Of a DNA stretch of 64,000 nucleotides, positions 18,927-44,233 are shown one piece after another. Each line of letters starts with the position of its first letter. Position 1 is the first letter of the stretch. The DNA is from Vulcanimicrobiota bacterium (GTDB lineage: Bacteria; Vulcanimicrobiota; Xenobia; Xenobiales; JADMJV01). The stretch is taken from NCBI GenBank assembly GCA_019637395.1, contig JAHBVR010000012.1, forward strand, positions 193,842-257,841. The letters are read 5' to 3'. Under the pieces are notes generated by a model, which was not told the DNA's origin, searched no databases, and saw only the letters and a program-made list of their open reading frames with translations. The translations under genes were made by a program, and so were the position numbers.

Positions 18927-18982
18927 GGCTCCTGGCCGTTCGCGAGGAAAGGGGCTGCTCCTGGCGAAACGCGCACCCCCTC

Positions 18983-19474
18983 ATGGAATACTTCATTCTG
19001 CCGGTCAGTTGGGAAAAGACCACTCTCTACCTGATCTACTTCAGTAACGACGACGATGGCGTCATCACCTCGCCGGATCAGAAATTCGCGCTGGCCCACT
19101 CGCGGGTTGAAGCCCAGGCCCTGGCCAAGAAGCGCAACCTGAAGCTGCAGGAGGACATGGAACTGCTCGACCTGGGTGTCATTCAAAGCTGGGTCAACAG
19201 CCGCTCGATGCGCCTGCCCGAAGCCAACCTCATTTACCGCGCCTGGAACTTCTTCGGCGACGTCGCCACCAGCCTGAAGCTGGCCGATCACTACCTGGGC
19301 TACGACGAAGATTACATCTCGCTGCACGACGAGCTATTCTGGGGCTGCAACATGCCGGGCCTGACCCAATCGGCCGAGCGCTACGAAGTCGACTTGAGCC
19401 AGAGCGAAATCCGCAACCTGCGATCCATCTTGAGATCCGGGCTGGAAATCTTCCGCCAGGGCGTCAATCAATAG
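18983..19474 (+). CDS. Hypothetical protein
   Basis: 163-aa ORF with coding-like composition, divergent from thrC. Confidence 0.45.
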   Translation: MEYFILPVSWEKTTLYLIYFSNDDDGVITSPDQKFALAHSRVEAQALAKKRNLKLQEDMELLDLGVIQSWVNSRSMRLPEANLIYRAWNFFGDVATSLKLADHYLGYDEDYISLHDELFWGCNMPGLTQSAERYEVDLSQSEIRNLRSILRSGLEIFRQGVNQ

Positions 19475-19526
19475 GGCCCCTACCCCGCAGTAGGAATTCG
19501 AAACGTACTTCAGAACTTGCTTTCGC

Positions 19527-20468
19527 ATGAAAATCTCGAACTTACTTTTGGCCTCTCTGGGGGCACTATCCCTGGTGGGAGGAACTCCGGCCCTGGCCGC
19601 CCCCTCTCTGCTGGTGGGCGCTCCGGCCACGCCGCAAGTAAGAAAGGCCTCGGCTATCAACGCGGTGCACTACCGCAAGCTCAAAGCCGCCGGCGCAACC
19701 TGCCATGTCGTCGAGGTGGACCTATACAACCCTCATGTGCAGCTACGCGCCTTCCGTGCCGCCGACCTGGGCACTCGCTACCGCACCTTCGGCTCCTTCG
19801 TGCGCCAGACCAGGCCGATCGCGGCTATCACCGGCACCTTTTTCGACACCGCCACCGGCACCATCATCTGCAATCTGGTGCGCGACGGCCGCCTGGTGGA
19901 AATGGGCAGCGTCGGGCACACTCTGGCGCTGGACGAAGTCAATCAGCCCAAGTGGATGAGCACGGCCGGCCAGTACGGCGGCGGCCACAACTGGAAAGAC
20001 AGTGAGTTTGCCGTCTCCAGCGGGCCCACTCTGCTGCGCGGCGGCCAGATCTGCCTCAATCCGCGCGCCGAGGGATTCCGCGACCCCGGCCTCTTCCGCC
20101 AGGCCTCGCGGGCCGGCATCGCCACCACCAGTCGCGGCAAACTCTTGCTGGTCACCGTCAACCAGGGCGTCACCCTGCACAAATTTGCCCAGGTGATGCA
20201 GGCCTTAGGCGCCAGTGACGCGCTCAACCTGGACGGCGGCAGCTCGACCGCGCTTTACGCGCGCGGCAATTACGTGAGCCGCCCCGGACGCCGCCTGACC
20301 AACGTGCTGCTGGTGACCGTCCGCCCCGGCGCCCCCATCCCCCGCGAAGTCGAACTCGAAGCTCTGCAGGCCGACGAAAACCAGCTTCAGCCGGAAAACT
20401 CGGAAGATTTCGGGCCTGCTCCCATGCCCGAAAAGATCGACCTTTCCACCCAGGACATCTGGCTCTGA
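19527..20468 (+). CDS. Phosphodiester glycosidase family protein (NAGPA/DUF2233-like), secreted
   Basis: Signal peptide MKISNLLLASLGALSLVGGTPALA; conserved LNLDGGSSTALY segment. Confidence 0.7.
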   Translation: MKISNLLLASLGALSLVGGTPALAAPSLLVGAPATPQVRKASAINAVHYRKLKAAGATCHVVEVDLYNPHVQLRAFRAADLGTRYRTFGSFVRQTRPIAAITGTFFDTATGTIICNLVRDGRLVEMGSVGHTLALDEVNQPKWMSTAGQYGGGHNWKDSEFAVSSGPTLLRGGQICLNPRAEGFRDPGLFRQASRAGIATTSRGKLLLVTVNQGVTLHKFAQVMQALGASDALNLDGGSSTALYARGNYVSRPGRRLTNVLLVTVRPGAPIPREVELEALQADENQLQPENSEDFGPAPMPEKIDLSTQDIWL

Positions 20469-21319
20469 TCGAGCACCACCCGCCGACCCAGGGCCAGCGG
20501 ATAGTTATCGGCGGCGTGCCCGAAAGCCAGGTCGGCCAGCACCGGCACCTGCCAGCGATCCACCCAGTGGCGCCACAGAGCGCCCAGGTCGCCGCACTCC
20601 ACAAAGCTGCCCAGAGCCACTCCGGCCAGACCCCGAAAGGCGCCACCGGCCTCCAATTGCACCAGCATGCGATCGAGCCGGTAAGCGGCCTCCCTGACAT
20701 CTTCCAGAGCCAGAATACAACCCTCCCCCTGGAAACCCTCAGGCGTCCCGCACAGGCAAGTCAAGACGCATAAATTACCGCCCCAGAGCCTGCCTTCAGC
20801 CCGCCCCGGACGCAGCCAGCGGCCCGACAACGGCAAGAGGCAGCCTTCTTGCACCAGCCGCCGGGTCGCCTCCAGCGAGTCCGCGTCCAAGACCGGCAAG
20901 GTCTGCACATTGGCGCAATGAAACAACTGGTGCCACCCACGTTTTTGCAGGGCGTGCAACAACGCCGAAACATCCGAAAACCCGAAGACCGGCCGGGGCG
21001 CCCCCAGCTCCGGCAGGCAGCCCACCAGCCGAGTCAGCCCGTGGCCGCCGCGCACCACCCAACAGGCATCCACCTCCGGCCCCAGCGCCCAGGCCAGCTC
21101 CTCCCGCCGCTCGTCATCCGCGGCCGCCAGAAAGGCTAACTCCGAGGGAGGAGCCGAACCGGCCAGACAGCGCTGCAAAATCGGCCCCGGCAACACCTGA
21201 AACCCCCAGGATTCAAGAATCTCCATACCCTGCCGGGTGCGCTTGAGATCAGGAGCGCCACACGGGCAAATCAAAGCCAGTTTCACGCCCTTGCCTTCGC
21301 CCCCCTCCGAACTCTTCAC
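20387..21319 (-). CDS. LD-carboxypeptidase (peptidase S66; LdcA/MccF-like)
   Basis: N-terminal VKLALICPCG; nucleophile motif GFSDVSALL; C-terminal His/Glu region. Its 3' end overlaps the convergent upstream gene by about 80 bp. Confidence 0.78.
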   Translation of the reverse strand: MKSSEGGEGKGVKLALICPCGAPDLKRTRQGMEILESWGFQVLPGPILQRCLAGSAPPSELAFLAAADDERREELAWALGPEVDACWVVRGGHGLTRLVGCLPELGAPRPVFGFSDVSALLHALQKRGWHQLFHCANVQTLPVLDADSLEATRRLVQEGCLLPLSGRWLRPGRAEGRLWGGNLCVLTCLCGTPEGFQGEGCILALEDVREAAYRLDRMLVQLEAGGAFRGLAGVALGSFVECGDLGALWRHWVDRWQVPVLADLAFGHAADNYPLALGRRVVLDQSQMSWVERSIFSGMGAGPKSSEFSG

Positions 21320-28739: not shown

Positions 28740-29537
28740 CTAAACCGGAGGTTTCTCCAAATGAGTCTGGTGCACGCACAGATCGGCGATCTTGCGCACC
28801 AGCGCGCCTACCAGGGGCACGGCGGCCATGGTTCCGCCCAGCGAAAGAAGGTTGTTCATGATACGCGACTTCAAAGTTTTGCCCTCGAACTGCTCGCGCT
28901 TGCCCTGGGCGCTCAGGCCTTCCCCCCACAGCTTGCCGGTGGCCCACTCGTAGGCAGCGCTGGTTTCACGGCGCTGGGTGCGGTTTTCTTGGACGCATGT
29001 ATAGACTTTGCGTAGATAGCCGGATTCGCCCAGACGATCGGGATCGATTTCCACCGAGGCGCCGGCATACATCAGATTAGCCCGATTAAATCCTGGAGTT
29101 TTTTCCGACATGGGAAACAGGCAGGCGCCGTCGGTTTCCACGCGCTTCTCAAAGCAATCGAAGCCCTTGGAAACTTCCTCCGGTTTGATGGCGGCGTAGC
29201 CATCCAGGTCCGAATTGGCGCCCAGACGGCCGCGCGAGAAACTGCCGGTCAGGTAAATTTTGCTGGGATAAGCAGGCAGTTCTTGCACATTCTCGAGCAA
29301 AGACCGCTGCAGCGCGTCAATGCGCGGCCCCACCTGCGCATCGGTAAAAGGCCTGGCCAGTTCGCGATCCACCTTGGACTGCCAGCGCGCCGACAACTGG
29401 TCGGAAGAACGGTGAGAAAGGTAAGTAGCCAGGTTCTCCTGCATCACTTCGTGCTGCTCGGCCGGCAGGCCGCGTTCTTTCATCAACTTGCCGGCATCAC
29501 GCCAATGCTGGTCCGGCCATTTGGTCTGGATTCTCAC
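28740..29537 (-). CDS. Nucleotidyltransferase-domain protein (Pol-beta superfamily, PF01909-like)
   Basis: LTGSFSRGRLGANSDLDGYAAI matches hG[GS]x9-13Dh[DE]h. Forms an ATGA overlap with the upstream His-box gene. The N-terminus reads MRIQTKW…. Confidence 0.65.
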   Translation of the reverse strand: MRIQTKWPDQHWRDAGKLMKERGLPAEQHEVMQENLATYLSHRSSDQLSARWQSKVDRELARPFTDAQVGPRIDALQRSLLENVQELPAYPSKIYLTGSFSRGRLGANSDLDGYAAIKPEEVSKGFDCFEKRVETDGACLFPMSEKTPGFNRANLMYAGASVEIDPDRLGESGYLRKVYTCVQENRTQRRETSAAYEWATGKLWGEGLSAQGKREQFEGKTLKSRIMNNLLSLGGTMAAVPLVGALVRKIADLCVHQTHLEKPPV

Positions 29538-30127
29538 TGGGGCATGCCCATCCGGGCCAGTTCAGCCGTCAACTGCTCTTCGCTGATCTTACCGAGAGCG
29601 AAGTTCTTGTAGGGTTCCACTTTCCAGGCGACCGGTTCGGCGCCGAGGGTATTGTAGATGGCCTTTTCCCACTTGGGCCAGAACTTGATTTTGTCGAGCG
29701 CCTTATTGCTCACGCCGATCAGACAATAGTCGGAATCGTGCGTGTTGGTGTGCCACTTGGTGTGCTTGAGAGTCTGAGCCTGGCTGCCGTAGTTGTCGCC
29801 CTTGTGATGCCACACGCCCGAAGCCAGGTCCATGGCCACGATGATGGCGCCCGCTCCCAAAGCGGTGATGGCGGCTCGGGTCAGTCCCACCGACAGGCTG
29901 CTCGAGGTGGCCAGATCGTAGCCAATCTTGGCCACCCCGGCCACTCCGACGGCGGCCGCGGCACCACGGGCGATTTTCTTGACCACGCGGTGAGCGGGCC
30001 GGGCTCCCGAAAACTCGACGGAATCGCTCTGTTCTTTGGGCTGCGGCTGGGGAGTGGTGGCGAACTTGTTGTAGCTGATCGTTACCTTCATGTTATTGTG
30101 CTGGATTTTCATCCGTCGATTCCCCAT
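29534..30127 (-). CDS. His-box membrane protein (short paralog of the 30109..31092 gene)
   Basis: Shares GVWHHKGDNYG and HTNTHDSDYCLIGVSNKALDKIKFWPKWEKAIY with its neighbour. The N-terminus carries the MKIQ / Pro-rich / SDSVEF module. Confidence 0.6.
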   Translation of the reverse strand: MGNRRMKIQHNNMKVTISYNKFATTPQPQPKEQSDSVEFSGARPAHRVVKKIARGAAAAVGVAGVAKIGYDLATSSSLSVGLTRAAITALGAGAIIVAMDLASGVWHHKGDNYGSQAQTLKHTKWHTNTHDSDYCLIGVSNKALDKIKFWPKWEKAIYNTLGAEPVAWKVEPYKNFALGKISEEQLTAELARMGMPQ

Positions 30128-31092
30128 TTCTCTTTGCGCATCGGCATCTCGGTGGCTTTGAAGCCCTTCATCATTTCTCGGGAACGGGCGATGTATTCTT
30201 CTTTGCTGATCTTGCCGTCCACGTAGTCCTTATATTCCGGGACATTCCAGGAGTCCGGCTTGGCTCCGGTGATTTTATAGATGGCCTTTTCGTAGCGGGG
30301 CCAGAACTTGATTTTGTCGAGCGGCTTGTTGAGATGGCCGGTGACGATGCAGTAATCGCTGTTCCAGGGCATGCGGTGGTGAACGCCGTGATTCTTGGGG
30401 TCGATGGCCAGGCCGGCTTTTTGGAGCAGTTTGCCGTGCTTGGGAACCTCGGTCTGCTTCATATGCGACCACTGGTGGAATTTACCGTAAACGCTCATAC
30501 CGCCGATGAGCCCGATGGCGCCGGCCAGGATGGGAGCGGGAGCCCCCAGAGCGGCGGCGCCGACCAGCGGGGCCCAGGCTACCGTGCTGAGCGGGAAGGC
30601 CCAGTAAGACAGGGAGTAGTGACCCAGTTTACCGGGGTGGAAGTGATGGCGCTGGGCCTGCTTGGCGAATTTGCGCACGAAACCGAGCTTGGCGTCGGGC
30701 TTGGCGTAGTTGTCGGCCCAGTGGTGCAGCAGCCCCGAGGGCAGGTCGGCCAGCACGTAGCCGGCGGCCAGAGCGCCGGTGGAGAGAGCGGCCGTTCCAA
30801 TGGCCGCGCCCAGCGTGGGGGCACCGGCCACGTCGGCGATGACTTTGGCGGCGCACCAGGCGCCGGAGGCGAGCACGCCGCCGAACATCAACTTCATAAA
30901 GGGGCTGCCTTCGGTATCCTTACCGGCGACACGCTTTTCTTGGAAGAATCCTTTGATGAGGCGCTGGCCCAAACCCAACTCCGGTTCTGGCCGGGAAGTC
31001 TCGAGCTGCACGCTGTCGGCGGCCGGGGCGGCCGGAGGAGCCGGCAGCAGTTTGGGCAGATTCGGTTGGCTGGGTACGCTCTGGATTTTCAT
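30109..31092 (-). CDS. His-box membrane protein, di-iron lipid desaturase/hydroxylase-like (CarF/FAD4/TMEM189-like, tentative)
   Basis: His clusters LLHHWADNY, HHFHPGK, HQWSHMK and HGVHHRMPWNSDYC, separated by hydrophobic Gly/Ala-rich helices. The N-terminus reads MKIQSVPSQPNLPKLLPAPPAAPAADSVQL. Confidence 0.6.
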   Translation of the reverse strand: MKIQSVPSQPNLPKLLPAPPAAPAADSVQLETSRPEPELGLGQRLIKGFFQEKRVAGKDTEGSPFMKLMFGGVLASGAWCAAKVIADVAGAPTLGAAIGTAALSTGALAAGYVLADLPSGLLHHWADNYAKPDAKLGFVRKFAKQAQRHHFHPGKLGHYSLSYWAFPLSTVAWAPLVGAAALGAPAPILAGAIGLIGGMSVYGKFHQWSHMKQTEVPKHGKLLQKAGLAIDPKNHGVHHRMPWNSDYCIVTGHLNKPLDKIKFWPRYEKAIYKITGAKPDSWNVPEYKDYVDGKISKEEYIARSREMMKGFKATEMPMRKEKWGIDG

Positions 31093-31168
31093 AGGCCAAA
31101 TTTACAACTCGTCAATGAAAAGTCCCTGAATTTATCCCTTCAGGCTTCTTTGAGGAGATTCGACTAAG

Positions 31169-31927
31169 TTGATAAGCGTGAAACTACAGCGACATAGTCC
31201 GCAAACGCCTCGTCCCCTACCCCCTCCCAAACCACCCGAACCCAACGACCCGGGCAGCCTCGTCGACCACGTGGGAGCTGTCCAATTGGGAGGCCTGCTC
31301 AGTGACCTGGGGATGGGGGCTGCCTACACCTTTGGCGCCTCCACACCCGTCAGCGGCCTGGGACTGGCCATGGCCGCCTTCCATGGCGCCCGCGGGGCCG
31401 CTTTTGGTGCTTTAGCCTTAAAGGAAAAAGAAGCGTTTAAACTTAAAGCTCGCATCGGTGTGGCCGCTTCGGAGGGCCTGCTGGCCGCCGGCCATGCCCT
31501 GGGAGCCCTGGGCGGGGGCGCCTGGAGCATCCCATTGCTGGCCGCCGGCGCCGGACTGAATGCCTTCACCGACTACAAATACCGCACCCACTTCGGAGTG
31601 GAAGCCCCGGCCAAAGGCCCGGTCAGCCCGGCCCGCATTGCGGGTGCAATGGTGGATGGCGCCCTGGGCGTTAGCTACGCCGCCGGCGCCTCTTCTTTAG
31701 GTCTGGTGGCCGGTGCCGGCCACCTTGGCGCCATGGTCGGCTACTACGGCGGCAGCCTCTGGAAACCCGAAATGAAGCATCACTGGCACAGTAAAGGTTT
31801 CGGCCACGCCCTGCTGGCCGCCGGCCACCTGGCCGGAGCCGCCGGGGCCGGCGCCTGGGTTCTGCCCGTGCTGGCTGGCGGGACTTTGATCACCACCCTT
31901 CAGGATTCGCGCCAGAACGCCAAATAA
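31169..31927 (+). CDS. Gly/Ala-rich glycine-zipper membrane protein with a Pro-rich N-terminus
   Basis: MISVKLQRHSPQTPRPLPPPKPPEPNDPGSLVDHVGAVQL, then GxxxG/AxxxA zippers and the His motif EMKHHWHSKGFGH. Confidence 0.55.
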   Translation: MISVKLQRHSPQTPRPLPPPKPPEPNDPGSLVDHVGAVQLGGLLSDLGMGAAYTFGASTPVSGLGLAMAAFHGARGAAFGALALKEKEAFKLKARIGVAASEGLLAAGHALGALGGGAWSIPLLAAGAGLNAFTDYKYRTHFGVEAPAKGPVSPARIAGAMVDGALGVSYAAGASSLGLVAGAGHLGAMVGYYGGSLWKPEMKHHWHSKGFGHALLAAGHLAGAAGAGAWVLPVLAGGTLITTLQDSRQNAK

Positions 31928-32112
31928 TTTTGTTCATGAATTGGCCAAGGACTTGTCCTCGGAACGCGACCAGTTCCGCTCCTCTGTCCTGGGACAGCAG
32001 CCCATCTGCATCGCCAATGAGGACAAAAGCCGCCTGACGCGTTCGGATCTGGCGTCGACTATGGTCGGGTCGGGTGCCTAACACCCAAAAGCCAGCTACC
32101 CCTCAGCGAAAG

Positions 32113-33261
32113 CTACTGACCCCACCCAAAAAAGTCGCGCATCTCCAAATACGTCTGCGGGTTCGAGAACAGCAGGCCGTGGTTGCGGTGGTGGCGGTCT
32201 TTCAAAAAGTGGGGTTTCTCGTCGCCGATCTGGAGGGAGTTGCCGGGCACGGTGCCGTCGCCGAGCACGGGGATGAAGTAGCGGCCCAGCGTCGGGCGGG
32301 AGTGGGAGCCGACCAGGCGCACCGCTTCGCTACGGGCCTTCTGGCTTTCCCAGCGTGAATTCAAGTCAGCCAGTTGAGGGTTGGCGGGGCCGCCGGTGAC
32401 GGGGCGCAGCCAGCCCAGCGCGTCGCGGTCGGCTTCGGTGATGGGTTTGCGCGAAAGCAGCCAGTTGGTATCCCAACCCCGACCGGCCAGATCCAGCAGT
32501 CCCAGCGAAGAACGAGCCAGCGCCGAGCCGCGATTGGGCGTGCCCAGCATCATGAACTTACCCACCTGGTCGCCGCCCTGATCCAAGTAGGTGCGCGTGG
32601 CCAGTCCGCCCATGGAATAGCCGACCACGTCGGCCTTGGGACTGCCGGTCAGGGCCGCGATGGCTTTCAAATCCCGCGCCAATTCGGGAGCAGACAGATT
32701 AGGCGGAGTATTCACCGAAGGGAACACGGCCACGAAAACCTTGCCGTCGGAGCGCACCTGCGAAGTCAAAATGCGCTCCTGGCAATCCAGATCAGCGAAG
32801 AACTCGCCGTCGCGCACATAGTAAACGCGCCCGCCGTTCTGACCGTTGGCGGTCAGCTTCTCGGCCAGATGATCAAAGCGATCCTCGGGAGTCTGCCAAC
32901 CCGGTACCAGCACCACCGGACGCTGAATGCGCGAGTCGGGTAAATCCTTCAGCAAAGTCGGGGGGAGCGGCTTTTTGATGGCGCCCAGCGACTCCCACCA
33001 GCCCATTTTCTGACCCAGGTGCTCCAAGCCCTCGCCCGCCTTGGAGAGCACCACCGCCAACGGCCCGCACAGGGCCATCAGAACCTTTGAGCCCAGGCCG
33101 GTGATGAAACGCGGCTTTTCCTCCAAAGTCGTCCAGGCGGGGGGACCTTTGGGCCCATTCGGACCACCGCCAATCTGAACGCTATCAGGCGAAGCGGGCG
33201 AAACAGACGGGCGAGGCGGCACAGGCGCCGAAAGAGGACGAAACGCGGACTGGATCTTCAC
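32113..33261 (-). CDS. Alpha/beta-hydrolase (lipase/esterase) carrying the MKIQ N-terminal module
   Basis: Nucleophile elbow VVGYSMGGLATR (GxSxG). The N-terminus MKIQSAFRPLSAPVPPRPSVSPASPDSVQI parallels that of the 30109 gene. Confidence 0.78.
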   Translation of the reverse strand: MKIQSAFRPLSAPVPPRPSVSPASPDSVQIGGGPNGPKGPPAWTTLEEKPRFITGLGSKVLMALCGPLAVVLSKAGEGLEHLGQKMGWWESLGAIKKPLPPTLLKDLPDSRIQRPVVLVPGWQTPEDRFDHLAEKLTANGQNGGRVYYVRDGEFFADLDCQERILTSQVRSDGKVFVAVFPSVNTPPNLSAPELARDLKAIAALTGSPKADVVGYSMGGLATRTYLDQGGDQVGKFMMLGTPNRGSALARSSLGLLDLAGRGWDTNWLLSRKPITEADRDALGWLRPVTGGPANPQLADLNSRWESQKARSEAVRLVGSHSRPTLGRYFIPVLGDGTVPGNSLQIGDEKPHFLKDRHHRNHGLLFSNPQTYLEMRDFFGWGQ

Positions 33262-33370: not shown

Positions 33371-33454
33371 ACGTCAGAGTAGCACTCCCTCCAGGTCCAT
33401 GACAGGCACTTTATACCTAGTTTTTATCACAAAACATGGTCAAACATGACCATA

Positions 33455-34954
33455 TCATGGAGTAGGTGGAGCAGCCTGGCTGAAGTAGCCGTGTTCGAAA
33501 GGAGCGGCCAGGGCGTGGCGCAGACGCGCCCGCGACAAATTCAACTCATTCAGAGAGTTCACGTAATTGGTGCGGGCCGAAACGATAGCATTCTGGGCGT
33601 CGAACACATCCGTCAGGGTCCCCAGGGCGGCCCGGTAGCGCCCCGAAGCGATGCGCACACCCTCACGGGCCGAATCCACGGCGGCGGCCGCCGCCTCCAG
33701 ATTGCGCTCGGCCGTCAGCAACTGCATGACCACTCCACTCACGTCCCGCTCCACCAGCAACTGAGTTCGAGTGTAGGCGGCTTTGGCCACCTCGATGCCG
33801 CCCTGGGCGTTGATGGTGGCACCGGCCTGGGCACCGCCGTCCCACACCTGAAAGTCGATGGACATCTGCAGGTTGAAGGTCGGATATTGCACGCCGTTGG
33901 CGCGTCCTTGATAAGTAATTCCCGCGAAAGTCGACAGAGCCGGGTAATTCAAGGTCCGGGCCGCGTCGTAAGCAGCCAGAGCCGCATCCACATTACGCTG
34001 GGCCACCAACATATCCGGTCGCTGCGCGAAAGCCAGCTTGCTCAACTCGTTCATGTCCCGCAAAGGCACATCCGGCTCGTCAAAGTCGACCAGCTCCAGC
34101 GAACTGCGGGGAGAAAGGCCCAGGGACTGGGCCAGATCGAGACGAGCCAGTTCCAGGTTACGCCGCGCGTTGTTCAGGGCGAAGACCGAATTAGACACAG
34201 TGGTTTGGGAGCGAACCACGTCGCCCGGCGACATATTGCCGGCCTGGAAAAGCGCCCGCGACATGCGCAACTGTTCCTGACGATTCTTCAGATCGTCCTC
34301 CCCCACCTGAACCAGACGCTGCGCTTGCAAAACCGTATAATAACGCTCCTTGACCGTCAGGGACACGTCATTCTCGGTTTGCAACAGGCTGGCAGCCGCG
34401 GCCTGGCGACGCAAATCGGCGGCCCGCACCAGATCGCGGGTATGGCCGAAATCGAAAAGCAGCCAGTTGATACCCACGCTGTTGGACCAGGTATCGGTGG
34501 TCCGATTGACCGGGTTCAGGCCCAGCGAAGCCGTCTGGCTACCCGCCGAAGTGCCGGAAATATGACTGTACTGACTGGTGCCTCCGATGTGAGGCAATAG
34601 AGCGGCGCGCTGCTGTATGGTGGTGCCCTCGGCCTGCTGCAACTGGCCCTGGGCGGTGCGAATGTCCGGCTGCAGCCGCCAGGCCAGCCGCACGGCTTCT
34701 TCGGGGCGAATCGGCAAGCGGGGCGCATTCTCGTCCTCCGGCTCAGGCAGGGCCAAAGGAATCGGCGGCTTGGGAACGGCCTCACGCGTCTGGTCGGGGT
34801 TGAAAGGCGCGGGCTCTCCCGGCACCGGCTCGGGCATCAACGGCGGCGGCGGGGGCAGCGGAGGTTTTGCGAAGGCCGGCAAAGCCAGCCAGAGACACAG
34901 AAGACCCTTACGCACGCGCTTTCCTCTGCTTAAAGAAACGGCGTTCGAAGTCAT
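33455..34954 (-). CDS. TolC-family outer-membrane efflux protein
   Basis: 499 aa. Pro-rich N-terminal linker, tandem alpha-helical/beta-barrel halves, and the typical …LNLSRARL… closing motif. Confidence 0.85.
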   Translation of the reverse strand: MTSNAVSLSRGKRVRKGLLCLWLALPAFAKPPLPPPPPLMPEPVPGEPAPFNPDQTREAVPKPPIPLALPEPEDENAPRLPIRPEEAVRLAWRLQPDIRTAQGQLQQAEGTTIQQRAALLPHIGGTSQYSHISGTSAGSQTASLGLNPVNRTTDTWSNSVGINWLLFDFGHTRDLVRAADLRRQAAAASLLQTENDVSLTVKERYYTVLQAQRLVQVGEDDLKNRQEQLRMSRALFQAGNMSPGDVVRSQTTVSNSVFALNNARRNLELARLDLAQSLGLSPRSSLELVDFDEPDVPLRDMNELSKLAFAQRPDMLVAQRNVDAALAAYDAARTLNYPALSTFAGITYQGRANGVQYPTFNLQMSIDFQVWDGGAQAGATINAQGGIEVAKAAYTRTQLLVERDVSGVVMQLLTAERNLEAAAAAVDSAREGVRIASGRYRAALGTLTDVFDAQNAIVSARTNYVNSLNELNLSRARLRHALAAPFEHGYFSQAAPPTP

Positions 34955-37900
34955 CCAGCAGCAGGTAGGCCATCGGCACCACTACCAGCGTCAGCAAGGT
35001 GGATACGAACAAACCGCCGATGACGGTGATGGCCATGGGAGCTTCCAGCTCGCCGCCGCGCCCGCGCATGGCGATGGGAACCATGCCCAGCATGGCCGCC
35101 AGCGCCGTGATCAAGATGGGGCGCAGGCGGGTGGGGCAGGCCTCCAGCAGAGCGGCCTCGCGGTCCAAACCGCGGTCGCGCGCCTGCAGCGTATTCTCGA
35201 TCAAAAGAATGCCGTTCTTCACCGAAATGCCCACCAGCAACAGACAACCCACGCCCGACATCACTGAGAAAGGCGTGCCGGTCAGGAACAAGGCCAGCAC
35301 GATGCCCATGGTGCACAGCGGCACGCTCATCATGATCGAGAGCGGCACAATCAGATTCTCGAACTGAATGCACAGCAGCATATAGATCAGCATCACGGCC
35401 AGCGCCCCCGCCAACCAGAGACGCCCAAACTCGGCGCTTTGCGCCTTCATGGTGGCGCTCCAGTCCCAACTATAGCCATCCGGCATATCAAAGTCGGCCA
35501 TGGCGGCCGTCACGTCGGCGGTAATATCCGAAAGCGCGCGGCCTTCCCCGGCGCTGACCAGGGCGGCGTAGCGCTGGCGGGTGGACCGGCTGATGGTGGC
35601 GTAGCCGATGGCCTGGGTGGCCCGGGCCACCTGGCGTAGTTGCACGGCCTTGGGAACATCTTCCTGAGCGGCCGTATTGTTGCCGGCGCCCCCCTGGCTC
35701 ACATCGGAATTTACGTAAATACCACGCATATCCACCGTGGAGCGGCGCGCCTCGGGCGACAACTGCACCACGATGGGCGCGCGTACCCCCGCATCCTGGA
35801 AATAGCTGGCGGTCGTGCCGGCGGAGGCGGTCTGCAGGGCCGAGGCCACCTGCGAAAAACTCAGGCCCAGCTGACTGGCTTTGTCTCGATCCACCACCCA
35901 GCGCACTTCGGGCGCCGGCTCGCCGGCGCGGTCGCGCAGGTCCTGCAAACCGGGAATGGTCTTGAGCAGATCGACCAGGTCGGCCGACAATTCGGCCAGC
36001 CTGGCCAGGTCCGGCCCAAAGATGTCGATCTCGATGCTCTGCCCTTGCTGGCCGGTGATGATGGTCCTGACGATGTCCATGGTGGAAGGGAAGGCGCGCA
36101 CGGCCGGAATCTTGTTGAAGCCGACCTGCAGGCGGGAGCCCACCTGGTCGCTGGAACCGCGGCGGCTGTCCTTGAGTGCAATCCAGGCGTTGCCCTGGTC
36201 GCGGCGGCCGGTGCTGCCGCCCCCGCCGGCTCCCACCGTGGTCAGGTAGGAGGCCACATCCTTGTTCTTGGCCAGCACCGACTCAATGCGCTGCATGGCC
36301 TTATCGGTTTCTTCCAGCGAAGTTCCCTTCGGCATGGTCACCTGCATACGCAGGGTTCCCGTATCGGAACCCGGCATAAAATCAAAGCCCAGCAGGGGAA
36401 CGAAAATCAGGCTGCCCAATGTGAGCAGGCAACCGCCGATGAGGATCTTGTTACGGTGTCCCATGGCGCTCTCCAACAGCCGGGCGTAACCCGCGTCCAG
36501 CTTCTTGAGCCACTCTTCCCATTTGTGGAACTGGCGCTGCCAGAAAGGCCAGACTTTTTCCTCGGCCGGTTTGCGAATGAACTGGGCGCACAGCATGGGC
36601 ACGCCCGTGAGCGCGTCCAACAACGAGAAAGCCATGGAGATAATGACCACCAGGGCGAACTGCTTGAACATCTGCCCGGTCTGACCGGGGATGAGCAGCA
36701 TCGGGAAAAAGACCACCATAATGGTCAGGGTCGAGGAAATGACCGCGCCCACGATGGGGCGGGTGCCTTCGATGGCGGCTTCCTCCGGGTCCATGTCCTC
36801 TTCTTCGACCTTGCGATAGACCGATTCCATGACCACCACCGCGTCATCCACGATCAAGCCGGTGGCCAGAGCCAGTCCGACCAGGCTCATGGTGTTGAGG
36901 GTATAGCCCATCATATAGAGGAAACTAAAAGTGCTGATGACCGAAACCGGAATGGAGGTGGCCACTACCAGGGTAGAGCGAAAATTGCGCAGGAAGAAAA
37001 GCACGATGGCCATGGCCAGCAACCCGCCCACCACGGCTGCCTCCTGCAAACTGTGCACGGCGTTGGAAACGTAGCGAGACTGGTTATAAATCTGTTCAAA
37101 GTGCAGTTCCGGGTGGTTCTGCTCGACGATCTTGAGTTTTTCCAAAACCGCGCTCACGGTGGTCACGGTATTGGAGCTGGCCTGTTTGATAATATTCAGG
37201 CTGCCGGCCGGCTCTCCGTTGAGGCGCTGATAGGTGGTGGTATCCAGGTGGGAGTCGACGACCCGGGCCACCGCTTTGAGCGGAATCAGCTTGCCGTTGG
37301 CGCGCCCCACCGGAATGTTCTGCAGCTCGCGTAAGCTCTGAATCCAGCCATAGCTGCGCACCAGCAACTGCTGGTTGCCTTCGTAAGCGGTGCCACCCGG
37401 CACGTTCTGGTTTTCCTTGGACAGGGCCGTGACCAGGTCTTGCGAGGACAGGCCGCGGGCCAGCAGAGCTTGACTGTCGAATTGCACCACGATGGCGCGC
37501 TCCTGGCCGCCGGCCACGTCGGCCGAACCCACGCCTTCGGCCGACTCCAGGATGGGCTTCACCTCGTTTGTGAGCACACTGCGCAGTCGCACCGGATCGG
37601 AAATACCGCTCACACCCAGAACCAGGATGGGCATGGAGTTGGGATCGAATTTCTGCACGGTGGGAGCCTGCAGCGTCGGGTCATCGGTGGGGAACTGGCG
37701 TTGGGCCTTCTGTACCAACTGCAGAGTGTCCAGAGCGGCCTGCGCCATATCGTAGCCGGGCGCGAACTCCAGCGTCACGCGCGAGGACCCCTCGGACGTA
37801 TCCGAGCGCATACTGGAGAGGCCGGGCACGGTGGCGACCACGTCTTCCACCGGCCGGGTAATCTGGTATTCCAGATCTTCGGGGCTGACCCCGGTCCAAC

Positions 37901-38048
37901 TGGTGACCACGAACAGCGAGGGCCGGGTGATGTCGGGCAGCAGCTCGACCGGCAACTGCGTGTAAGCCAGGGCTCCCAACACCACGAAGATCAAAATGCG
38001 CATCCAGGTGGCCACCGGCCGGCGCACCGACAGTTCGGCGATATCCAT
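34908..38048 (-). CDS. RND efflux transporter permease (AcrB/HAE1-type, 12 TM helices)
   Basis: 1046 aa. N-terminus MDIAELSVRRPVATWM…, two large periplasmic loops and 12 hydrophobic helices. Confidence 0.95.
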   Translation of the reverse strand: MDIAELSVRRPVATWMRILIFVVLGALAYTQLPVELLPDITRPSLFVVTSWTGVSPEDLEYQITRPVEDVVATVPGLSSMRSDTSEGSSRVTLEFAPGYDMAQAALDTLQLVQKAQRQFPTDDPTLQAPTVQKFDPNSMPILVLGVSGISDPVRLRSVLTNEVKPILESAEGVGSADVAGGQERAIVVQFDSQALLARGLSSQDLVTALSKENQNVPGGTAYEGNQQLLVRSYGWIQSLRELQNIPVGRANGKLIPLKAVARVVDSHLDTTTYQRLNGEPAGSLNIIKQASSNTVTTVSAVLEKLKIVEQNHPELHFEQIYNQSRYVSNAVHSLQEAAVVGGLLAMAIVLFFLRNFRSTLVVATSIPVSVISTFSFLYMMGYTLNTMSLVGLALATGLIVDDAVVVMESVYRKVEEEDMDPEEAAIEGTRPIVGAVISSTLTIMVVFFPMLLIPGQTGQMFKQFALVVIISMAFSLLDALTGVPMLCAQFIRKPAEEKVWPFWQRQFHKWEEWLKKLDAGYARLLESAMGHRNKILIGGCLLTLGSLIFVPLLGFDFMPGSDTGTLRMQVTMPKGTSLEETDKAMQRIESVLAKNKDVASYLTTVGAGGGGSTGRRDQGNAWIALKDSRRGSSDQVGSRLQVGFNKIPAVRAFPSTMDIVRTIITGQQGQSIEIDIFGPDLARLAELSADLVDLLKTIPGLQDLRDRAGEPAPEVRWVVDRDKASQLGLSFSQVASALQTASAGTTASYFQDAGVRAPIVVQLSPEARRSTVDMRGIYVNSDVSQGGAGNNTAAQEDVPKAVQLRQVARATQAIGYATISRSTRQRYAALVSAGEGRALSDITADVTAAMADFDMPDGYSWDWSATMKAQSAEFGRLWLAGALAVMLIYMLLCIQFENLIVPLSIMMSVPLCTMGIVLALFLTGTPFSVMSGVGCLLLVGISVKNGILLIENTLQARDRGLDREAALLEACPTRLRPILITALAAMLGMVPIAMRGRGGELEAPMAITVIGGLFVSTLLTLVVVPMAYLLLDDFERRFFKQRKARA

Positions 38049-39652
38049 CAGTCTTTTCCGCTGGTCGGCTGAGGGTCGATCGATTGCCCGTTTTTCAACC
38101 GGCCCTGGGACTGGGTGACCACTGTATCCCCTTCATACAATCCCTTGTTGATCACGGTCTGGCGCGTGTCGCTGCGACCGTAGCTGACCTTGGTCACTTC
38201 CACTTTTTTATTGACCACCTTGTAGACGGTGGCCTCACGCTTCTCCACGTCCTTATCGATCAGGGCCGAATTGGGCACCGTCAACTGGGGATCGGGTGGA
38301 CCCACCTTGATCTTGACGCGCGCGAACATGCCGGGCTTGACCAGATGTTTTTGGTCATCCAGGGTCACGCGCACGTTGAACTGGCGGGTGGCGGTATCAA
38401 TGGCCGCGTCCTTGGAGAAAACCCGACCCGAAAAAACCTGGCCGCGCAGTCCGTCGATGGTGACCTCGACCGGATGGCCTTTGTCCACGCGTGAAATGAC
38501 TTCTTGGGGAAGCGAAGTGACCACCCAGACCTGCTGGCCGGACTGCACCGTCAGGATCGAAGTCCCCAGACTGGCCACCGCTCCCACGTCCAGTTTGCGG
38601 TCGCTGACGTAGCCATTGACCGGTGACTTCAAGACCGTATCCTGCAACTGCAGTTGGGCCGTTTCCAGGTCGGCTTCGGCGGCGTGCACCAGCGATTGCT
38701 GGGCCCGCAGTTGCTGGCGGAAGGCTTCCGATTTAGAAATTCCGGCCCGGGCTTCGGCCAGGGAAGCTTCCTTGGAAACTTCATTGAGCTTGGAGACGTC
38801 GATATCCGCCTTGGCCGAGACCGTGTCCTTCTTGGCCTGGGCCTGCGCGTTCACCACGTCTTTCTCGGCCGCCCGCACGTTGGCTTCCTGCAGATCCACG
38901 GCCGCATCCTGCGACAGCATAGTGCGATAGGTATCTTGCACGTCAGCGTTGGAGGCAAATCCCTGGCGCTGCAGGCCCAGCATGCGCTCGTACTTGGCCT
39001 TAGCCGTTTCGAAGTCCACCTGGGACTGGCGCAGCGAAGCCCTGGCTCCCACCAGTTTGGCCTGGGCCTGGGTAATGGTGGTGGCTCCCTGGGTGCGTGT
39101 GGCCGAATAGACCTGCTGAGATTTTTGCACATTGGCCTGAGCGGCCTGGAGATCGGCGCCGGCGATGGAGACGCCGCTGCTGGCCTGCACGTCGGTCAGC
39201 TGTTGCTGGGACTGCAGTTGATAGTAAGTGAACTGGGCATTGGCCAGGTCACTCTTCTTCTTGAGCAGGTTGGCGCGCGCCGGACTGGGATCGATACGCA
39301 CCAGCACCTGGCCCTGGCGCACCGGATCACCCTGGCGGACCAGCAACTCCAGGATGGGGCCGGCCGACTTGGCCACGATATCCACGTTCTGGCTGGATTC
39401 CACATTGCCCACCTGATCGAACTCGAACTGCAGGCGGCGCTTGGAGGCCACGTCGACGGTCACAGGCGGAACCGCCGCGCCCGCGCGGCTACGCCGGCCC
39501 CCGCGGCCGCTGGGCTTGCTGACGGCCTGATAGACACGATAGCCGACCAGGCCCAGGAAGAGGGCGCCGACCAGCACCACCAAAGCAAAGAGCTTCGGTC
39601 GTTGTCGAAGGCCGGCCAGCATCATTGGGCTAGTTTGGGGCATAGAGGGCAC
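38048..39652 (-). CDS. RND efflux periplasmic adaptor (membrane fusion protein)
   Basis: 534 aa. N-terminal TM helix, long coiled-coil hairpin, beta-barrel. Overlaps the RND gene start. The start codon is GTG at 39652 or a downstream ATG. Confidence 0.85.
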   Translation of the reverse strand: MPSMPQTSPMMLAGLRQRPKLFALVVLVGALFLGLVGYRVYQAVSKPSGRGGRRSRAGAAVPPVTVDVASKRRLQFEFDQVGNVESSQNVDIVAKSAGPILELLVRQGDPVRQGQVLVRIDPSPARANLLKKKSDLANAQFTYYQLQSQQQLTDVQASSGVSIAGADLQAAQANVQKSQQVYSATRTQGATTITQAQAKLVGARASLRQSQVDFETAKAKYERMLGLQRQGFASNADVQDTYRTMLSQDAAVDLQEANVRAAEKDVVNAQAQAKKDTVSAKADIDVSKLNEVSKEASLAEARAGISKSEAFRQQLRAQQSLVHAAEADLETAQLQLQDTVLKSPVNGYVSDRKLDVGAVASLGTSILTVQSGQQVWVVTSLPQEVISRVDKGHPVEVTIDGLRGQVFSGRVFSKDAAIDTATRQFNVRVTLDDQKHLVKPGMFARVKIKVGPPDPQLTVPNSALIDKDVEKREATVYKVVNKKVEVTKVSYGRSDTRQTVINKGLYEGDTVVTQSQGRLKNGQSIDPQPTSGKD

Positions 39653-41905: not shown

Positions 41906-44233
41906 TTGCACCCCCAAGAGAAGTTGCAGCCCGCCATGCGCCGCCACCTGATCTGGATGTTCATGCTCCTGTCTGCCTGGGCCTGGGCCGAACCGGCCAC
42001 GCTGCGGGTCGGCATTCTCAGCTTCGAGGATCCTCTCGATCTCTATAAAGACTTGCGCATTCAGTCCAAGGTACTGAAGAGAGCTCTCAACCTCACGCCC
42101 TCTTTCGCCATCGGCACCTACGGAGAACTGTTCCACTGGCTGGAGAACGACCTGATCGACGTGGCCGTCATCAACTCCGGTCAACTCTCGCGTCTGTCCC
42201 AGGAAGAGTGGCAATACATCGGGTCGGCCTCCACCACCGGCCATGAGCCCGCCTACCTTTCGGTGATTCTGACGCGCAAGAACTCCGGTCTGAACAACCT
42301 CACCGACGTCAAGGCAGCTGGAAGCCGGCTGCGTCTGCTGGCGGTCGATCCGCTCTCGGTGTCGGGCTTCATTTATCCTATTTCCGCCCTGAAGCAGAAC
42401 GGCCTGGAAGTTACTCCCGAACAGGTTCGTTTCAGCTATTCGCACAGCAACTCGCTGCGCTGGCTGGCCCAGGCCGACGGACCGGAGATCGCCTGTGTCT
42501 GGGCCTCCACCTGGGAGCGCAACCCCCATCCCGAGCTACAGGTCATCCAGGTGCCGGGACTGGACCAATACCACAGTTTGCCGGTCGCTCTGGTGGCCCG
42601 GCGCGGCGCTCCCACCACCCCTGGACTGGCCCGGCTGGTGGCTTCCGGCGGTTTCCCGGGATTTCAATACGATCCGGACTACATGCGCGAAATGAAAAAA
42701 ATCCCCGATACTCTGCCGGGCGCGCTGAACAGTCTGTACGGGCGTCCTCTCGACCGGGTGGGCCTGGATGATCTGGTCATGACCTTGCATCATTACAATC
42801 GGACCCACGACCGCCCGGCCCGCCTGGCGGTGGTGCTGGCCGGCGGCGGGGCCAAATGTTCCTACCAGGCCGGGGCCGTGCGCGCCCTGGAAGAGAGCCT
42901 GCAGACCTGGAGCAAGCGGCTGGACGACGATCAGTTGGAAATGCGCCTGGTGGTGGGCACTTCGGGCGGCGCCATCAACGCGCTCTCGGTGGCCATGGGG
43001 CTCACCTCCACAGCCGATGGCTACACGGCCTTGAGCAGCGCCTGGAGCGACCTGGATCAGAGCGAAATCATCTGTCCGCCCCTGGCCGTGCGCATCAACT
43101 TGTGGTGCTGGTTGGCCTGCGTCACCGCGCTGGTCATTCTGGCCATCAACTGGACCCTGCGACTGGGAAAACCGCGCTCCATGGTGCTGACGCTGCTGGT
43201 CGGCCTCGGCATGTATGGCGTTTCCCATCTGCCCCTGCGCATGTTCCTGGGTACTGACTCAAACATCCAGCACGTCTGGGCCTGGCTCTCCTGGGGCATC
43301 GAGGGCGCCGGGTTGGTGCTGGTGTTGGTGGCCGTCACCGGTTTCCTTACCCTGCGCCGCGACCGCCGCAGCCAGCGGGTGGTCCATCGGACCGGGGCGC
43401 TGGTGCGCCTGGCCATCGCCGGCGTCACCCTGCTGCCGCTGCTCCAGGCCTGGACGATCTTTTGCTATGAGGAAGTGGTTTCCGAGAATCGCGGGATCGA
43501 AAGGGCGCTGACCCGCAATTTCGGCCAGTTGATCCAACGCCAGTCGGGTGATTCCTCTCCGCTGGCGGGCCTGACCATCAAGCAACTCTCCCAGCGCGTT
43601 TTCGAGAAGAATCTGCTCAAGCGCGATCTGGTGCTGGCGGCCTCGCCTTTGACCGACCCGGAATTACAACTGCCGGGTGAAATGTATTTCTACGCTTCCC
43701 CCCTGAATTCACCGGAACCGGCTTTCGGCAACCGCGGCATCGCCCTGGTCAAACGTCCGGAACTCTTATTTGACGCGCTGCTGGGCAGCGCGGCCATCTA
43801 TCCCCTCTTCCCCGCGCGGACCATCCACGATTTGCCCAAAGCGGGCCAGAAAGTCGACCTGGTGGACGGCAGTTTCGCCCACCGCAGTCCCCTGGAACCG
43901 GCCGTGCTCTGGGGCGCCACCCATGTGCTGGTAATCGAAGCCTCCACCCTGGAGCCGACCGTCCGCGGGAACTTGCTCAACAATTTCGGGGCCTCCCTGA
44001 CCTACCTCTATGACGAAGCCCAATTGGTGGACGTGCGCCTGCGAGGACAAACGGTGCTTTACACCCTTTATCCGAGCGCTCCCCACATCGGATTACTGGA
44101 CTTTTCCCCCCATTTGATTCGCGCTTCCATCGATAAAGGCTACCGCGAGGCCTCGGGAGCTCCCACCTCGGCCTATCAAAAAGGCGGGGCTCTGCACAAA
44201 GAATTAGGCCCTCCGATCTTTTGGACTCCCTGA
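41906..44233 (+). CDS. Patatin-like phospholipase fused to an N-terminal PhnD/SsuA-like periplasmic-binding-like domain and a multi-TM insert
   Basis: Signal peptide, then TLRVGILSFEDP…DVAVINSG. Patatin motifs VVLAGGGAKCSYQAG (GGxK/R), GTSGG (GxSxG) and DGSFAH (catalytic Asp). Four hydrophobic helices in between. Confidence 0.78.
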   Translation: MHPQEKLQPAMRRHLIWMFMLLSAWAWAEPATLRVGILSFEDPLDLYKDLRIQSKVLKRALNLTPSFAIGTYGELFHWLENDLIDVAVINSGQLSRLSQEEWQYIGSASTTGHEPAYLSVILTRKNSGLNNLTDVKAAGSRLRLLAVDPLSVSGFIYPISALKQNGLEVTPEQVRFSYSHSNSLRWLAQADGPEIACVWASTWERNPHPELQVIQVPGLDQYHSLPVALVARRGAPTTPGLARLVASGGFPGFQYDPDYMREMKKIPDTLPGALNSLYGRPLDRVGLDDLVMTLHHYNRTHDRPARLAVVLAGGGAKCSYQAGAVRALEESLQTWSKRLDDDQLEMRLVVGTSGGAINALSVAMGLTSTADGYTALSSAWSDLDQSEIICPPLAVRINLWCWLACVTALVILAINWTLRLGKPRSMVLTLLVGLGMYGVSHLPLRMFLGTDSNIQHVWAWLSWGIEGAGLVLVLVAVTGFLTLRRDRRSQRVVHRTGALVRLAIAGVTLLPLLQAWTIFCYEEVVSENRGIERALTRNFGQLIQRQSGDSSPLAGLTIKQLSQRVFEKNLLKRDLVLAASPLTDPELQLPGEMYFYASPLNSPEPAFGNRGIALVKRPELLFDALLGSAAIYPLFPARTIHDLPKAGQKVDLVDGSFAHRSPLEPAVLWGATHVLVIEASTLEPTVRGNLLNNFGASLTYLYDEAQLVDVRLRGQTVLYTLYPSAPHIGLLDFSPHLIRASIDKGYREASGAPTSAYQKGGALHKELGPPIFWTP

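Follow-up and report, generated by a model that had tools for sequence, protein, structure and literature searches.

An N-terminal leader shared by unrelated lipid-active and membrane proteins of Vulcanimicrobiota looks like a targeting presequence

The DNA described here is a 64,000-nucleotide stretch of contig JAHBVR010000012.1 from a Vulcanimicrobiota bacterium (the window; 61% G+C). It contains six coding sequences (CDSs) whose products start with M-[KR]-[IL]-Q, five of them within 28740-33261 and the sixth at 14968-15843. In five of the six, this start leads into a Pro/Ser/Thr/Ala-rich spacer, without an acidic residue for about 20 residues, which closes on a D-S-V-x-[LIF]-like motif; we refer to the whole N-terminal module as the leader. 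The lipase, desaturase and short desaturase start with MKIQ and have the DSV motif 26-30 residues in. All of the CDSs named in a first-pass annotation that drew attention to these N-termini are present as open reading frames (ORFs) and, as it had proposed, the bodies behind the leader belong to unrelated families: a PF10520 lipid desaturase, a truncated desaturase paralogue, a Pol-beta-type nucleotidyltransferase, a family-I-like lipase and two Gly-zipper proteins. The features are listed below (aa, amino acids; TM, transmembrane; HMM, hidden Markov model; pLDDT, predicted local distance difference test).

32113..33261, minus strand: lipase, an alpha/beta-hydrolase of 382 aa with a GTG start and a GYSMGG nucleophile elbow
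33172..33261, minus strand: leader of the lipase, residues 1-30, MKIQSAFRPLSAPVPPRPSVSPASPDSVQI, kept in orthologues P0046-P0049, L003 and L007
31178..31927, plus strand: Gly/Ala-rich, His-containing Gly-zipper-type membrane protein, 249 aa, GTG start, divergent from the desaturase operon
31178..31294, plus strand: leader of the Gly-zipper protein, residues 1-39, MKLQRHSPQTPRPLPPPKPPEPNDPGSLVDHVGAVQLGG, supported by orthologue starts and a left-out HMM
31125..31144, unstranded: inverted repeat CCTGAA-N8-TTCAGG, where the promoters of the Gly-zipper gene and the desaturase operon diverge
30109..31092, minus strand: PF10520 lipid desaturase (CarF/TMEM189/FAD4 superfamily), 327 aa, nine conserved His, four predicted TM helices
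31003..31092, minus strand: leader of the desaturase, residues 1-30, MKIQSVPSQPNLPKLLPAPPAAPAADSVQL, with conserved M1 and I3 and low pLDDT
29534..30112, minus strand: short desaturase, a truncated paralogue of the desaturase, 192 aa; its start overlaps the desaturase stop (ATGA)
30011..30112, minus strand: leader of the short desaturase, residues 1-34, MKIQHNNMKVTISYNKFATTPQPQPKEQSDSVEF, with relatives in L005, L006 and L001
28740..29537, minus strand: Pol-beta-fold nucleotidyltransferase-like protein, 265 aa, motif GSFSRGRLGANSDLDGY; its GTG start overlaps the upstream stop (GTGA)
29520..29537, minus strand: remnant nucleotidyltransferase leader MRIQTK, abutting a conserved W-x-D-x-x-W-x-D-A-G block
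14968..15843, minus strand: second Gly-zipper protein (22% Gly), 291 aa, about 13 kb away from the cluster
15721..15843, minus strand: leader of the 14968 protein, residues 1-41, MKIQQAPNFNSTPLVRTQNQEAPKPSDNNPTPPPPQEKVSI, starting MKIQQ and scoring 14.3 bits with an HMM built without the 14968 protein

The lipase and desaturase starts are preceded by an in-frame stop three codons upstream, and GTG 33261 is the first possible start of the lipase. Those of the short desaturase and nucleotidyltransferase overlap the upstream stops at 30109..30112 and 29534..29537, indicating that the desaturase, short desaturase and nucleotidyltransferase genes form a translationally coupled operon. Two starts proposed in the first-pass annotation required adjustment. 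The short desaturase had been placed at 30127, but ATG 30112 (MKIQH), the codon that overlaps the upstream stop, is more likely; the Gly-zipper protein had been started at TTG 31169, but GTG 31178 (MKLQR) is the better candidate, its orthologues beginning MKIQQ or MNIQH. Starts of Gly-zipper orthologues are MKIQQHNPQTPKPLP..., MKIQQQSPQLPRPLP..., MNIQHLPSP... and MILQRLPSP..., and short-desaturase leaders elsewhere read MKIQQFHSN...DSAQIDF (L005), MKIQNFNAN...DSIDF (L006) and MNIKTQ...DTVTI (L001). The 14968 protein does not have the DSV ending ascribed to it; it has MKIQQ and a spacer, but EKVSIG in place of DSV. The nucleotidyltransferase does start with MRIQ as claimed, although its leader is reduced to MRIQTK, and the spacers of its orthologues span 0-40 residues. 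The description of the N-termini as near-identical was too strong, in that the desaturase and lipase leaders are identical at only 10 of 30 positions; the similarity is nonetheless real and in register, and by hand count from the translations includes M1 K2 I3 Q4 S5 and D26 S27 V28 Q29.

When every start codon followed by at least 80 codons was considered in all six frames of the window, M-[KRQ]-[ILV]-[QT] matched at 15 positions, 6 of which are exactly the six gene starts. No leader-type start is present among the remaining 40 called window genes (0/40), which served as controls and were taken from simple gene calls based on third-position G+C (GC3). HMMs of the first 48 residues, trained with one family left out at a time, recovered the omitted lipases at 14-17 bits, short desaturases at 10-17, the 14968 protein at 14 and Gly-zipper proteins at 5-19, with per-sequence E-values of 1e-5 to 1e-8; the exception is the nucleotidyltransferase (at most 6 bits), the leader of which is nearly deleted in the window genome. 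The anchors are thus positionally conserved across families, which disposes of the possibility, allowed for in the first-pass annotation, that the proteins share MKIQ and generic proline richness only. An aliphatic residue occupies position 3 in 114 of 134 proteins from four families, compared with 10 of 40 control genes (Fisher p = 2e-12), although this and the other conservation statistics are indicative only, as the sequences are related. An acid-free stretch alone is a poor discriminator, with the median first Asp or Glu at position 23 in the module families and 17 in the controls. The first codons of the leader DNA vary at wobble positions and also in the choice of Ile or Leu codons, and the constraint therefore acts on the peptide; a shared 5' coding RNA element was ruled out on the same grounds.

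Database searches did not connect the leader to a described module. Ten leader fragments compared with Pfam at E-values up to 10 gave no match, no model in Pfam, NCBIfam or PADLOC describes the leader, and in the literature on Eremiobacterota secretion and flagella and on the leader itself we found no paper describing it and nothing bearing on Xenobia-type genomes. A metagenome DNA scan with TGAARATCCAG-N(60-90)-GAYAGCGTNCAR (encoding MKIQ...DSVQ) returned 34 matches with about 14 expected by chance, none with leader features; they are mostly out of frame, broken by stops or inside longer ORFs, and no new member was gained. Long ORFs antisense to real genes (3473..6697, 30334..31167 and 33446..34600, all plus strand, and others) are expected at 61% G+C and are not genes. 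One such antisense ORF, at 14468 on the plus strand, scores with the module HMM, a caution on low-complexity matches.

From the sequence comparisons, the 32113..33261 product is an alpha/beta-hydrolase and a family-I-like lipase. In phmmer searches of the PDB it matches Pseudomonas/Burkholderia lipases of families I.1 and I.2 and Bacillus LipA (E 3e-7 to 1e-3), and its Pfam matches, to Abhydrolase_1, Lipase_2 and DUF7379, are weak and lie just under the cut-offs. A single weakly hydrophobic segment, residues 53-71, stands ahead of the catalytic core. We found 66 homologues, 48 of which have more than 60 residues before the catalytic core, and among these 48 with a full pre-catalytic region 32 have a leader-type N-terminus, 26 of them without any TM-like segment. 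Their starts include MKIQS, MKISS, MQIQNT, MNISAA, MRIAST, MQITAT and MDVSRL, and many of the leaders close on ESVELSK, DSVQVT, DSVSISG or similar. A classical hydrophobic N-terminal signal was seen in the family only in the distant outgroups P0106, P0107 and P0111; the leader thus occupies the place of the signal peptide on a type of enzyme that is normally secreted. We note that the lipase gene lies directly downstream, on the same strand, of an MFP/RND/OEP efflux operon (33455..39652, minus strand), an order repeated in L003 (62..6224), and that in L044 some 2 kb separate a paralogous lipase from a further RND operon, which includes one MFP and two OEP genes (13260..20549). A second lipid-active enzyme of the window, at 41906..44233 (plus strand; 775 aa), combines a phosphonate-binding-type periplasmic domain with a patatin-like phospholipase and has no leader.

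The two Gly-zipper proteins, with 9 (31178..31927) and 25 (14968 protein) [GAS]xxxGxxx[GAS] motifs, have no match in Pfam, NCBIfam or PADLOC, and none of the six leader proteins matches a PADLOC anti-phage defence model.

The desaturase matches PF10520 with 120 bits against a gathering cut-off of 26.4. Across 28 sequences, H123, H124, H235 and H239 are invariant and H149, H150, H206, H210 and H238 are at least 90% conserved; M1 and I3 are likewise at least 90% conserved, and the spacer varies in length and sequence. Its body shares the domain and the conserved His with the CarF/TMEM189 (PEDS1) and FAD4 desaturases, as does that of the short desaturase, but the window desaturase is paired with a truncated paralogue and a nucleotidyltransferase and bears the leader. 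Orthology to CarF was rejected, with 72 bits against a cut-off of 500 for the NCBIfam equivalog NF045946 (CarF/plasmanylethanolamine desaturase). The short desaturase matches the C-terminal part of PF10520 (46.6 bits); of the His boxes it retains the first and the last, and the central part of the domain is gone. In P0002, P0010, L003, L007 and P0040 it follows on from the C-terminus of the desaturase within a single fused ORF of 503-531 aa (for example L003 10001..11596). The internal short-desaturase copy in these fusions lacks MKIQ and retains V-D/N-F-S/D-x-x-x-P-A-H-R, and the missing MKIQ argues that the anchor must stand at a free N-terminus.

The nucleotidyltransferase has the G-[SG]-x(9-13)-D-x-D motif as well as the Pol-beta core fold. 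Its AlphaFold2 (AF2) model has a pLDDT of 90.9, and no solved relative was found for the fold outside the Pol-beta part. The C-terminus has a weakly hydrophobic segment. All 45 matches to the family are hypothetical proteins, with an aliphatic position 3 in 38 of the 43 full-length members, and in L001 the gene (11594..13279) is a fused tandem duplication of 561 aa. The conserved three-gene operon, in which a new nucleotidyltransferase accompanies the PF10520 desaturase and its truncated partner, probably serves to make or remodel an unusual membrane lipid. The inverted repeat CCTGAA-N8-TTCAGG is perfect, lies in the 85-nucleotide divergent region and is unique in the window (0.14 expected); its arms are invariant and its loop is variable in five loci (L003, L004, L005, L007 and L008). 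It is probably the operator of a dimeric regulator that co-regulates the Gly-zipper gene and the desaturase operon. Signals in a promoter and terminator scan across the cluster did not exceed the shuffled expectation.

The closest database relatives of these proteins are annotated as Candidatus Eremiobacteraeota, Vulcanimicrobiota or 'bacterium SCN 62-11', and the same style of leader heads expanded families of lipases, desaturases and nucleotidyltransferases in this largely uncultured phylum, Eremiobacterota/Vulcanimicrobiota. Syntenic loci L003, L005, L006, L007 and L008 contain the lipase, Gly-zipper, desaturase, short-desaturase and nucleotidyltransferase genes in differing combinations, with the leader on every copy of these genes and on no neighbouring gene. 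L001 and L002, which are more distant, with about 53% G+C and a desaturase about 49% identical, retain the three-gene operon, and all of their products start M-x-I: MLIKTS, MNIKTQ and MRINAH in L001, and MQIQST, MQISSS, MNIGKN and MRIDGF in L002. Even where body identity falls to about 48%, orthologues retain M1 and the aliphatic position 3, whereas their spacers drift. In a full HMMER scan of 1.84 billion representatives, the clade of the window desaturase appeared as one representative (478 bits) and the next matches scored at most 188 bits; the named ones among these are paralogues from the same phylum, with an M-[KQN]-[ILV] start and a tail poor in acidic residues, in many cases with [DE]-T-V-x-[LI]. 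Two eukaryote-type desaturase matches, P0171 and P0178, start otherwise and do not have the leader.

Paralogues of the lipase occur in unrelated neighbourhoods, yet other leader-like proteins often adjoin them. These and similar candidates are as follows.

L044: Gly/Ala-rich 300-aa protein, MNVSSKPSSS...PKDSVSLSKG
L045: 592-aa protein, ...PQDSVEVR
L047: protein weakly matching Gly-zipper_Omp, leader-like, beside a lipase paralogue
L048: M36 fungalysin-type protease, MNSISSNRPNVPASSPK...GDTVSIPG, 24.6 bits against 23.3
L048: further alpha/beta hydrolase, MEIRPQTISRTSSQ...PSDSVELA
L050: 215-aa protein, MRIDGVSATSTPNL...PVDSVAVG
L052: 226-aa protein, after a desaturase paralogue
Upstream of the L002 operon: ATLF/M90-type protease with a leader-like N-terminus

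The resemblance of these N-termini is suggestive of the leader being borne by distant carriers as well, including the M36 protease, further Gly-rich proteins and others. Clusters of pseudopilin-like genes are found within a few kb of leader genes in the window (54045..56577, minus strand), L003 (18234..21225), L044 (24..6702) and L047 (3370..5797); in the window the prepilin-type genes are followed by one for a 1938-aa protein (56763..62579, plus strand), and such genes may simply abound in these genomes. A small, highly acidic protein (L047 6589..7230, minus strand) and an acidic coiled-coil protein (L044 11080..11913, plus strand) adjoin leader-bearing lipase paralogues; their placement recalls secretion chaperones, and neither has a family match.

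Several observations bear on the physical nature of the leader. In the AF2 model of the desaturase (mean pLDDT 84), residues 1-33 have a pLDDT below 50 and the confident body begins at about residue 38, and the leader is thus predicted to be intrinsically disordered. The His boxes of membrane desaturases lie on the cytoplasmic face, and since two helices separate the leader from the first box, the desaturase leader should also be cytoplasmic; the same would hold for the short desaturase, which in other genomes is fused onto the cytoplasmic C-terminus of the desaturase. Within their first 25 residues the leaders have a net charge of +2 to +3. The best 10-residue Kyte-Doolittle mean within the first 35 residues is -0.6 to 0.8 in MKI-type lipases versus 2.6-3.0 in outgroups P0106-P0111, and no hydrophobic run is present in the window leaders. 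None of the six proteins has a lipobox Cys among its first 50 residues or the RR of a Tat signal among its first 35. The lack of a hydrophobic core, RR and Cys excludes Sec, Tat and lipoprotein signals, and with them the first-pass annotation's second ground for doubt, that the module is an ordinary lipoprotein or Sec signal.

All six leader proteins of the window have at least one hydrophobic segment. These segments are Ala/Gly-rich, with Kyte-Doolittle peaks of 1.3-1.8, as against about 1.2-2.6 (mostly at least 2.0, means 1.9-2.1) for the helices of the RND and ATP-binding cassette (ABC) permease proteins of the window (1015..2229 and 34908..38048); other membrane proteins of the window likewise peak mostly at 2.0-2.6. 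Exported membrane proteins use weak TM segments to avoid the signal recognition particle (SRP). The rule typical of type III secretion system (T3SS) substrates, an aliphatic residue or Pro at position 3 or 4, holds for 6/6 window proteins, and the first Asp or Glu is at positions 21-27 in five of them and at position 9 in the nucleotidyltransferase. We applied a three-rule filter, a simplified form of the Pseudomonas syringae effector rules: aliphatic or Pro at 3 or 4, no Asp or Glu in residues 1-12, and a Ser, Pro and Thr content of 30% or more over residues 1-50. Of 233 called genes 15 pass the filter, and 13 of the 15 encode module proteins.

The leader looks like an N-terminal targeting presequence without a counterpart in the Pfam, NCBIfam and PADLOC models or the literature searched. 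The module may be read as three parts: a terminal anchor, Met-(Lys/Gln/Asn/Arg)-(Ile/Leu/Val)-(Gln/Ser/Thr)-(Ser/Thr); a net-positive, nearly acid-free spacer of about 15-35 residues, rich in Pro, Ser, Thr, Ala and Gln and drifting in length and sequence; and a short motif with a tendency to form a strand, (Asp/Glu)-(Ser/Thr)-(Val/Ile)-x-(Leu/Ile/Val/Phe), after which Ser or Gly is common. A tentative explanation, and the one that we prefer, is that it is a cytoplasm-exposed presequence that targets proteins for export or delivery, with a logic closest to that of type III secretion signals. A lineage-specific, disordered presequence of this kind would be read as a linear signal: a dedicated factor would recognise it in the cytoplasm, before or without folding of the protein, and bring the carriers to a common destination, which may be across or into the envelope or a specialised membrane site. 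The weakly hydrophobic, Ala/Gly-rich segments of many carriers would engage SRP poorly. The leader would thereby work as a type III secretion-type N-terminal signal does, either uncleaved or cleaved after DSVxL. A bolder proposal, about which we are considerably more doubtful, is that Eremiobacterota possess an undescribed targeting or export route whose presequence is M-[KQN]-I-x-[ST], an acid-free Pro/Ser/Thr spacer and [DE]-S-V-x-L. Such a route would depend neither on Sec or Tat nor on any of the known type I-XI systems, and its cargo would comprise soluble exoenzymes without a signal peptide (lipases and metalloproteases) as well as weakly hydrophobic membrane proteins (Gly-zipper proteins, and PF10520 desaturases with their partners).

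The nearest logic among known systems is that of type III secretion signals or of YSIRK/ESPR-type routing motifs, and by analogy the leader may work like one of these. Type III signals, for example those described by the P. syringae rules, are likewise disordered at the extreme N-terminus, have an aliphatic position 3 or 4, are acid-free early on and rich in Ser, Thr, Pro and Gln, require a free N-terminus, and are found on unrelated bodies that include lipases, proteases and weakly hydrophobic membrane proteins. In contrast to them, the leader is far more position-specific (M-K/Q-I-Q-S is nearly a consensus), has DSVxL as a second motif, and sits on a housekeeping-looking desaturase operon, with no T3SS genes seen in the window or related loci. 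The YSIRK-G/S motif of Gram-positives and the ESPR of type V secretion are also short motifs at the extreme N-terminus of unrelated exported proteins of a lineage and are thought to route proteins to a particular site or pathway, but they precede a normal hydrophobic Sec signal, whereas most leader carriers have no hydrophobic core. The loading peptides of microcompartments, encapsulins and contractile-injection systems resemble the leader as short terminal peptides with a flexible linker that recruit unrelated cargo. However, those of microcompartments are amphipathic helices and the leaders are Pro-rich and not amphipathic helices, no shell, encapsulin or sheath/tube genes are nearby, and several leader carriers are integral membrane proteins. 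By eye, the N-terminal half of FlgM, a disordered flagellar export signal, has the same three-part layout (M-x-I-x, Ser/Thr/Pro-rich, D/S-V-x-L-S); scoring against the E. coli flg region does not support a relationship to FlgM (PF04316), as the module HMM gives E. coli FlgM -2.4 bits and the ten leader fragments have no match at E-values up to 10 in Pfam, which we take to include the FlgM model.

A number of observations weigh against an export role. The module HMM gives no score to E. coli FlgM or to other flagellar export substrates, and the T3SS-like rules are permissive singly, the first passing 55% and the second 47% of genes. The distant carrier families are marginal, with E-values of 0.09-0.5 among 2834 candidate N-termini, where a spurious antisense ORF reached 5e-4. 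The desaturase is a four-helix, di-iron membrane enzyme in a coupled operon that is conserved across deep lineages, and this operon looks like housekeeping lipid metabolism and not like exported cargo. We saw no T3SS or flagellar gene, nor any other translocon candidate, in the window or among the Pfam matches listed for about 250 kb of related loci, and no partner peptidase or scaffold gene either; T3SS (sct or flh/fli) genes are lacking from the window and from the flanks of 17 related loci, and genes for a type I secretion ABC transporter, a type VI secretion system or contractile injection from the gene neighbourhoods of related loci. RND/MFP/OEP pumps and pseudopilin genes do recur in the neighbourhoods, and both are common in these genomes. 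Moreover, Vulcanimicrobium alpinum, the only cultured member of the phylum, has no flagella (PMC9758169). The first-pass proposal of a shared targeting signal is therefore partly supported: the module is positionally conserved, is found on unrelated bodies across the phylum and is not a Sec, Tat or lipoprotein signal, features easier to reconcile with a common targeting signal than with chance or recent duplication, but no partner machinery was seen. Its other suggestion, of an effector-cassette family, fares less well as a simple mobile cassette, given the deeply conserved and translationally coupled three-gene operon.

Other explanations differ in what they make of these same features. As the main rival reading, the leader may be an assembly or co-localisation tag that involves no translocation, a cytoplasmic short linear motif docking the membrane proteins of the cluster on a scaffold or on each other, such that the desaturase, short desaturase, tail-anchored nucleotidyltransferase, membrane-anchored lipase and Gly-zipper proteins would gather in a lipid-remodelling complex or membrane patch. 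We regard this as a doubtful account, with several points in its favour: all six window proteins have a hydrophobic segment or more, the three operon genes are conserved and coupled, the operator-like palindrome ties the Gly-zipper gene to that operon, the desaturase leaders appear from the AF2 model and His-box topology to be on the cytoplasmic side, leader genes cluster together in other loci, and the fusion of desaturase and short desaturase in several genomes is a Rosetta-stone sign of physical association. It fits poorly with the many leader-bearing lipase paralogues that have no membrane segment and lie in unrelated neighbourhoods, or with protease-type bodies bearing the leader; there is also no conserved candidate scaffold gene beside the cluster, and a strict, free N-terminal M-x-I would be unusual for a docking motif. 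That the leader controls abundance is unlikely. It would then be an N-terminal degron for an AAA+ protease (FtsH or ClpXP) or a polyproline translational throttle dependent on EF-P, and the leader set would in either case be co-regulated after transcription. FtsH begins to degrade membrane proteins at a disordered N-terminal tail that lies in the cytoplasm and spans 20 residues or more, and N-terminal degrons are present in eukaryotic desaturases; runs of PPP or PPPP are present in several leaders (PLPPPKPP, PTPPPPQ), and Met-basic-hydrophobic recalls one class of ClpX N-terminal recognition motif. Many leaders, however, have no polyproline, including those of the window desaturase and short desaturase, position 2, instead of being basic, is in many cases Gln, Asn or even Asp, and a degron explains neither the second conserved motif, DSVxL, nor the position of the leader in the signal-peptide place of the lipase family.

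We consider it very unlikely that the module is a bacteriocin-style import domain, that is, an unstructured translocation domain in which [DE]-[ST]-[VI]-x-[LIV] serves as a TonB box and the lipase, a pore-forming Gly-zipper protein, the nucleotidyltransferase and the protease are the toxic bodies. The motif does resemble the TonB-box consensus, and the translocation domains of colicins and pyocins are similarly disordered N-termini with a strand-forming motif that are swapped between cytotoxic bodies, much as the leader is common to different toxin-like bodies. Colicins and pyocins act from outside the target cell, however, whereas the leader is cytoplasmic on the desaturases, which are themselves implausible as toxins; no pattern of immunity genes is evident, the three-gene operon is deeply conserved, and the conserved extreme N-terminus has no counterpart in colicins. 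It is scarcely credible that the module is one of the ordinary signals (Sec, Tat or lipoprotein), or that low complexity or wrongly placed starts have produced an artefact. The leaders are N-terminal and net-positive like an n-region, and in the window lipase a weak hydrophobic segment follows at residues 53-71, but the tests of hydrophobicity, RR/Cys, start codons and cross-family conservation refute both: the first 35 residues hold no hydrophobic core, there is no RR motif and no Cys within the first 50, the starts are fixed by upstream in-frame stops or ATGA/GTGA overlaps, and the anchors keep their positions across families while the codons vary. One further protein of the window, at 62938..63726 (plus strand; 262 aa), has a Gln/Gly/Met-rich N-terminus (MAFVGNVGFNQMSPFGFGGMQQQNPYQQGFMMGQQMAQMQ...) and no Pfam match.

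Cells sort their proteins by N-terminal address labels, and every new label has led to a machine not known before, as with Tat, type III secretion, YSIRK routing and microcompartment encapsulation. The leader described here is unusually sequence-specific, is confined to one phylum, and is borne by expanded lipid-active and hydrolytic families in a lineage with one cultured representative. Were it merely an assembly tag or a degron, the interest would be narrower. If it is a targeting signal, it would offer a sequence handle with which to list the cargo of a pathway in every Eremiobacterota genome; the machine would be findable by co-occurrence, and the leader itself would provide a portable tag for experiments.

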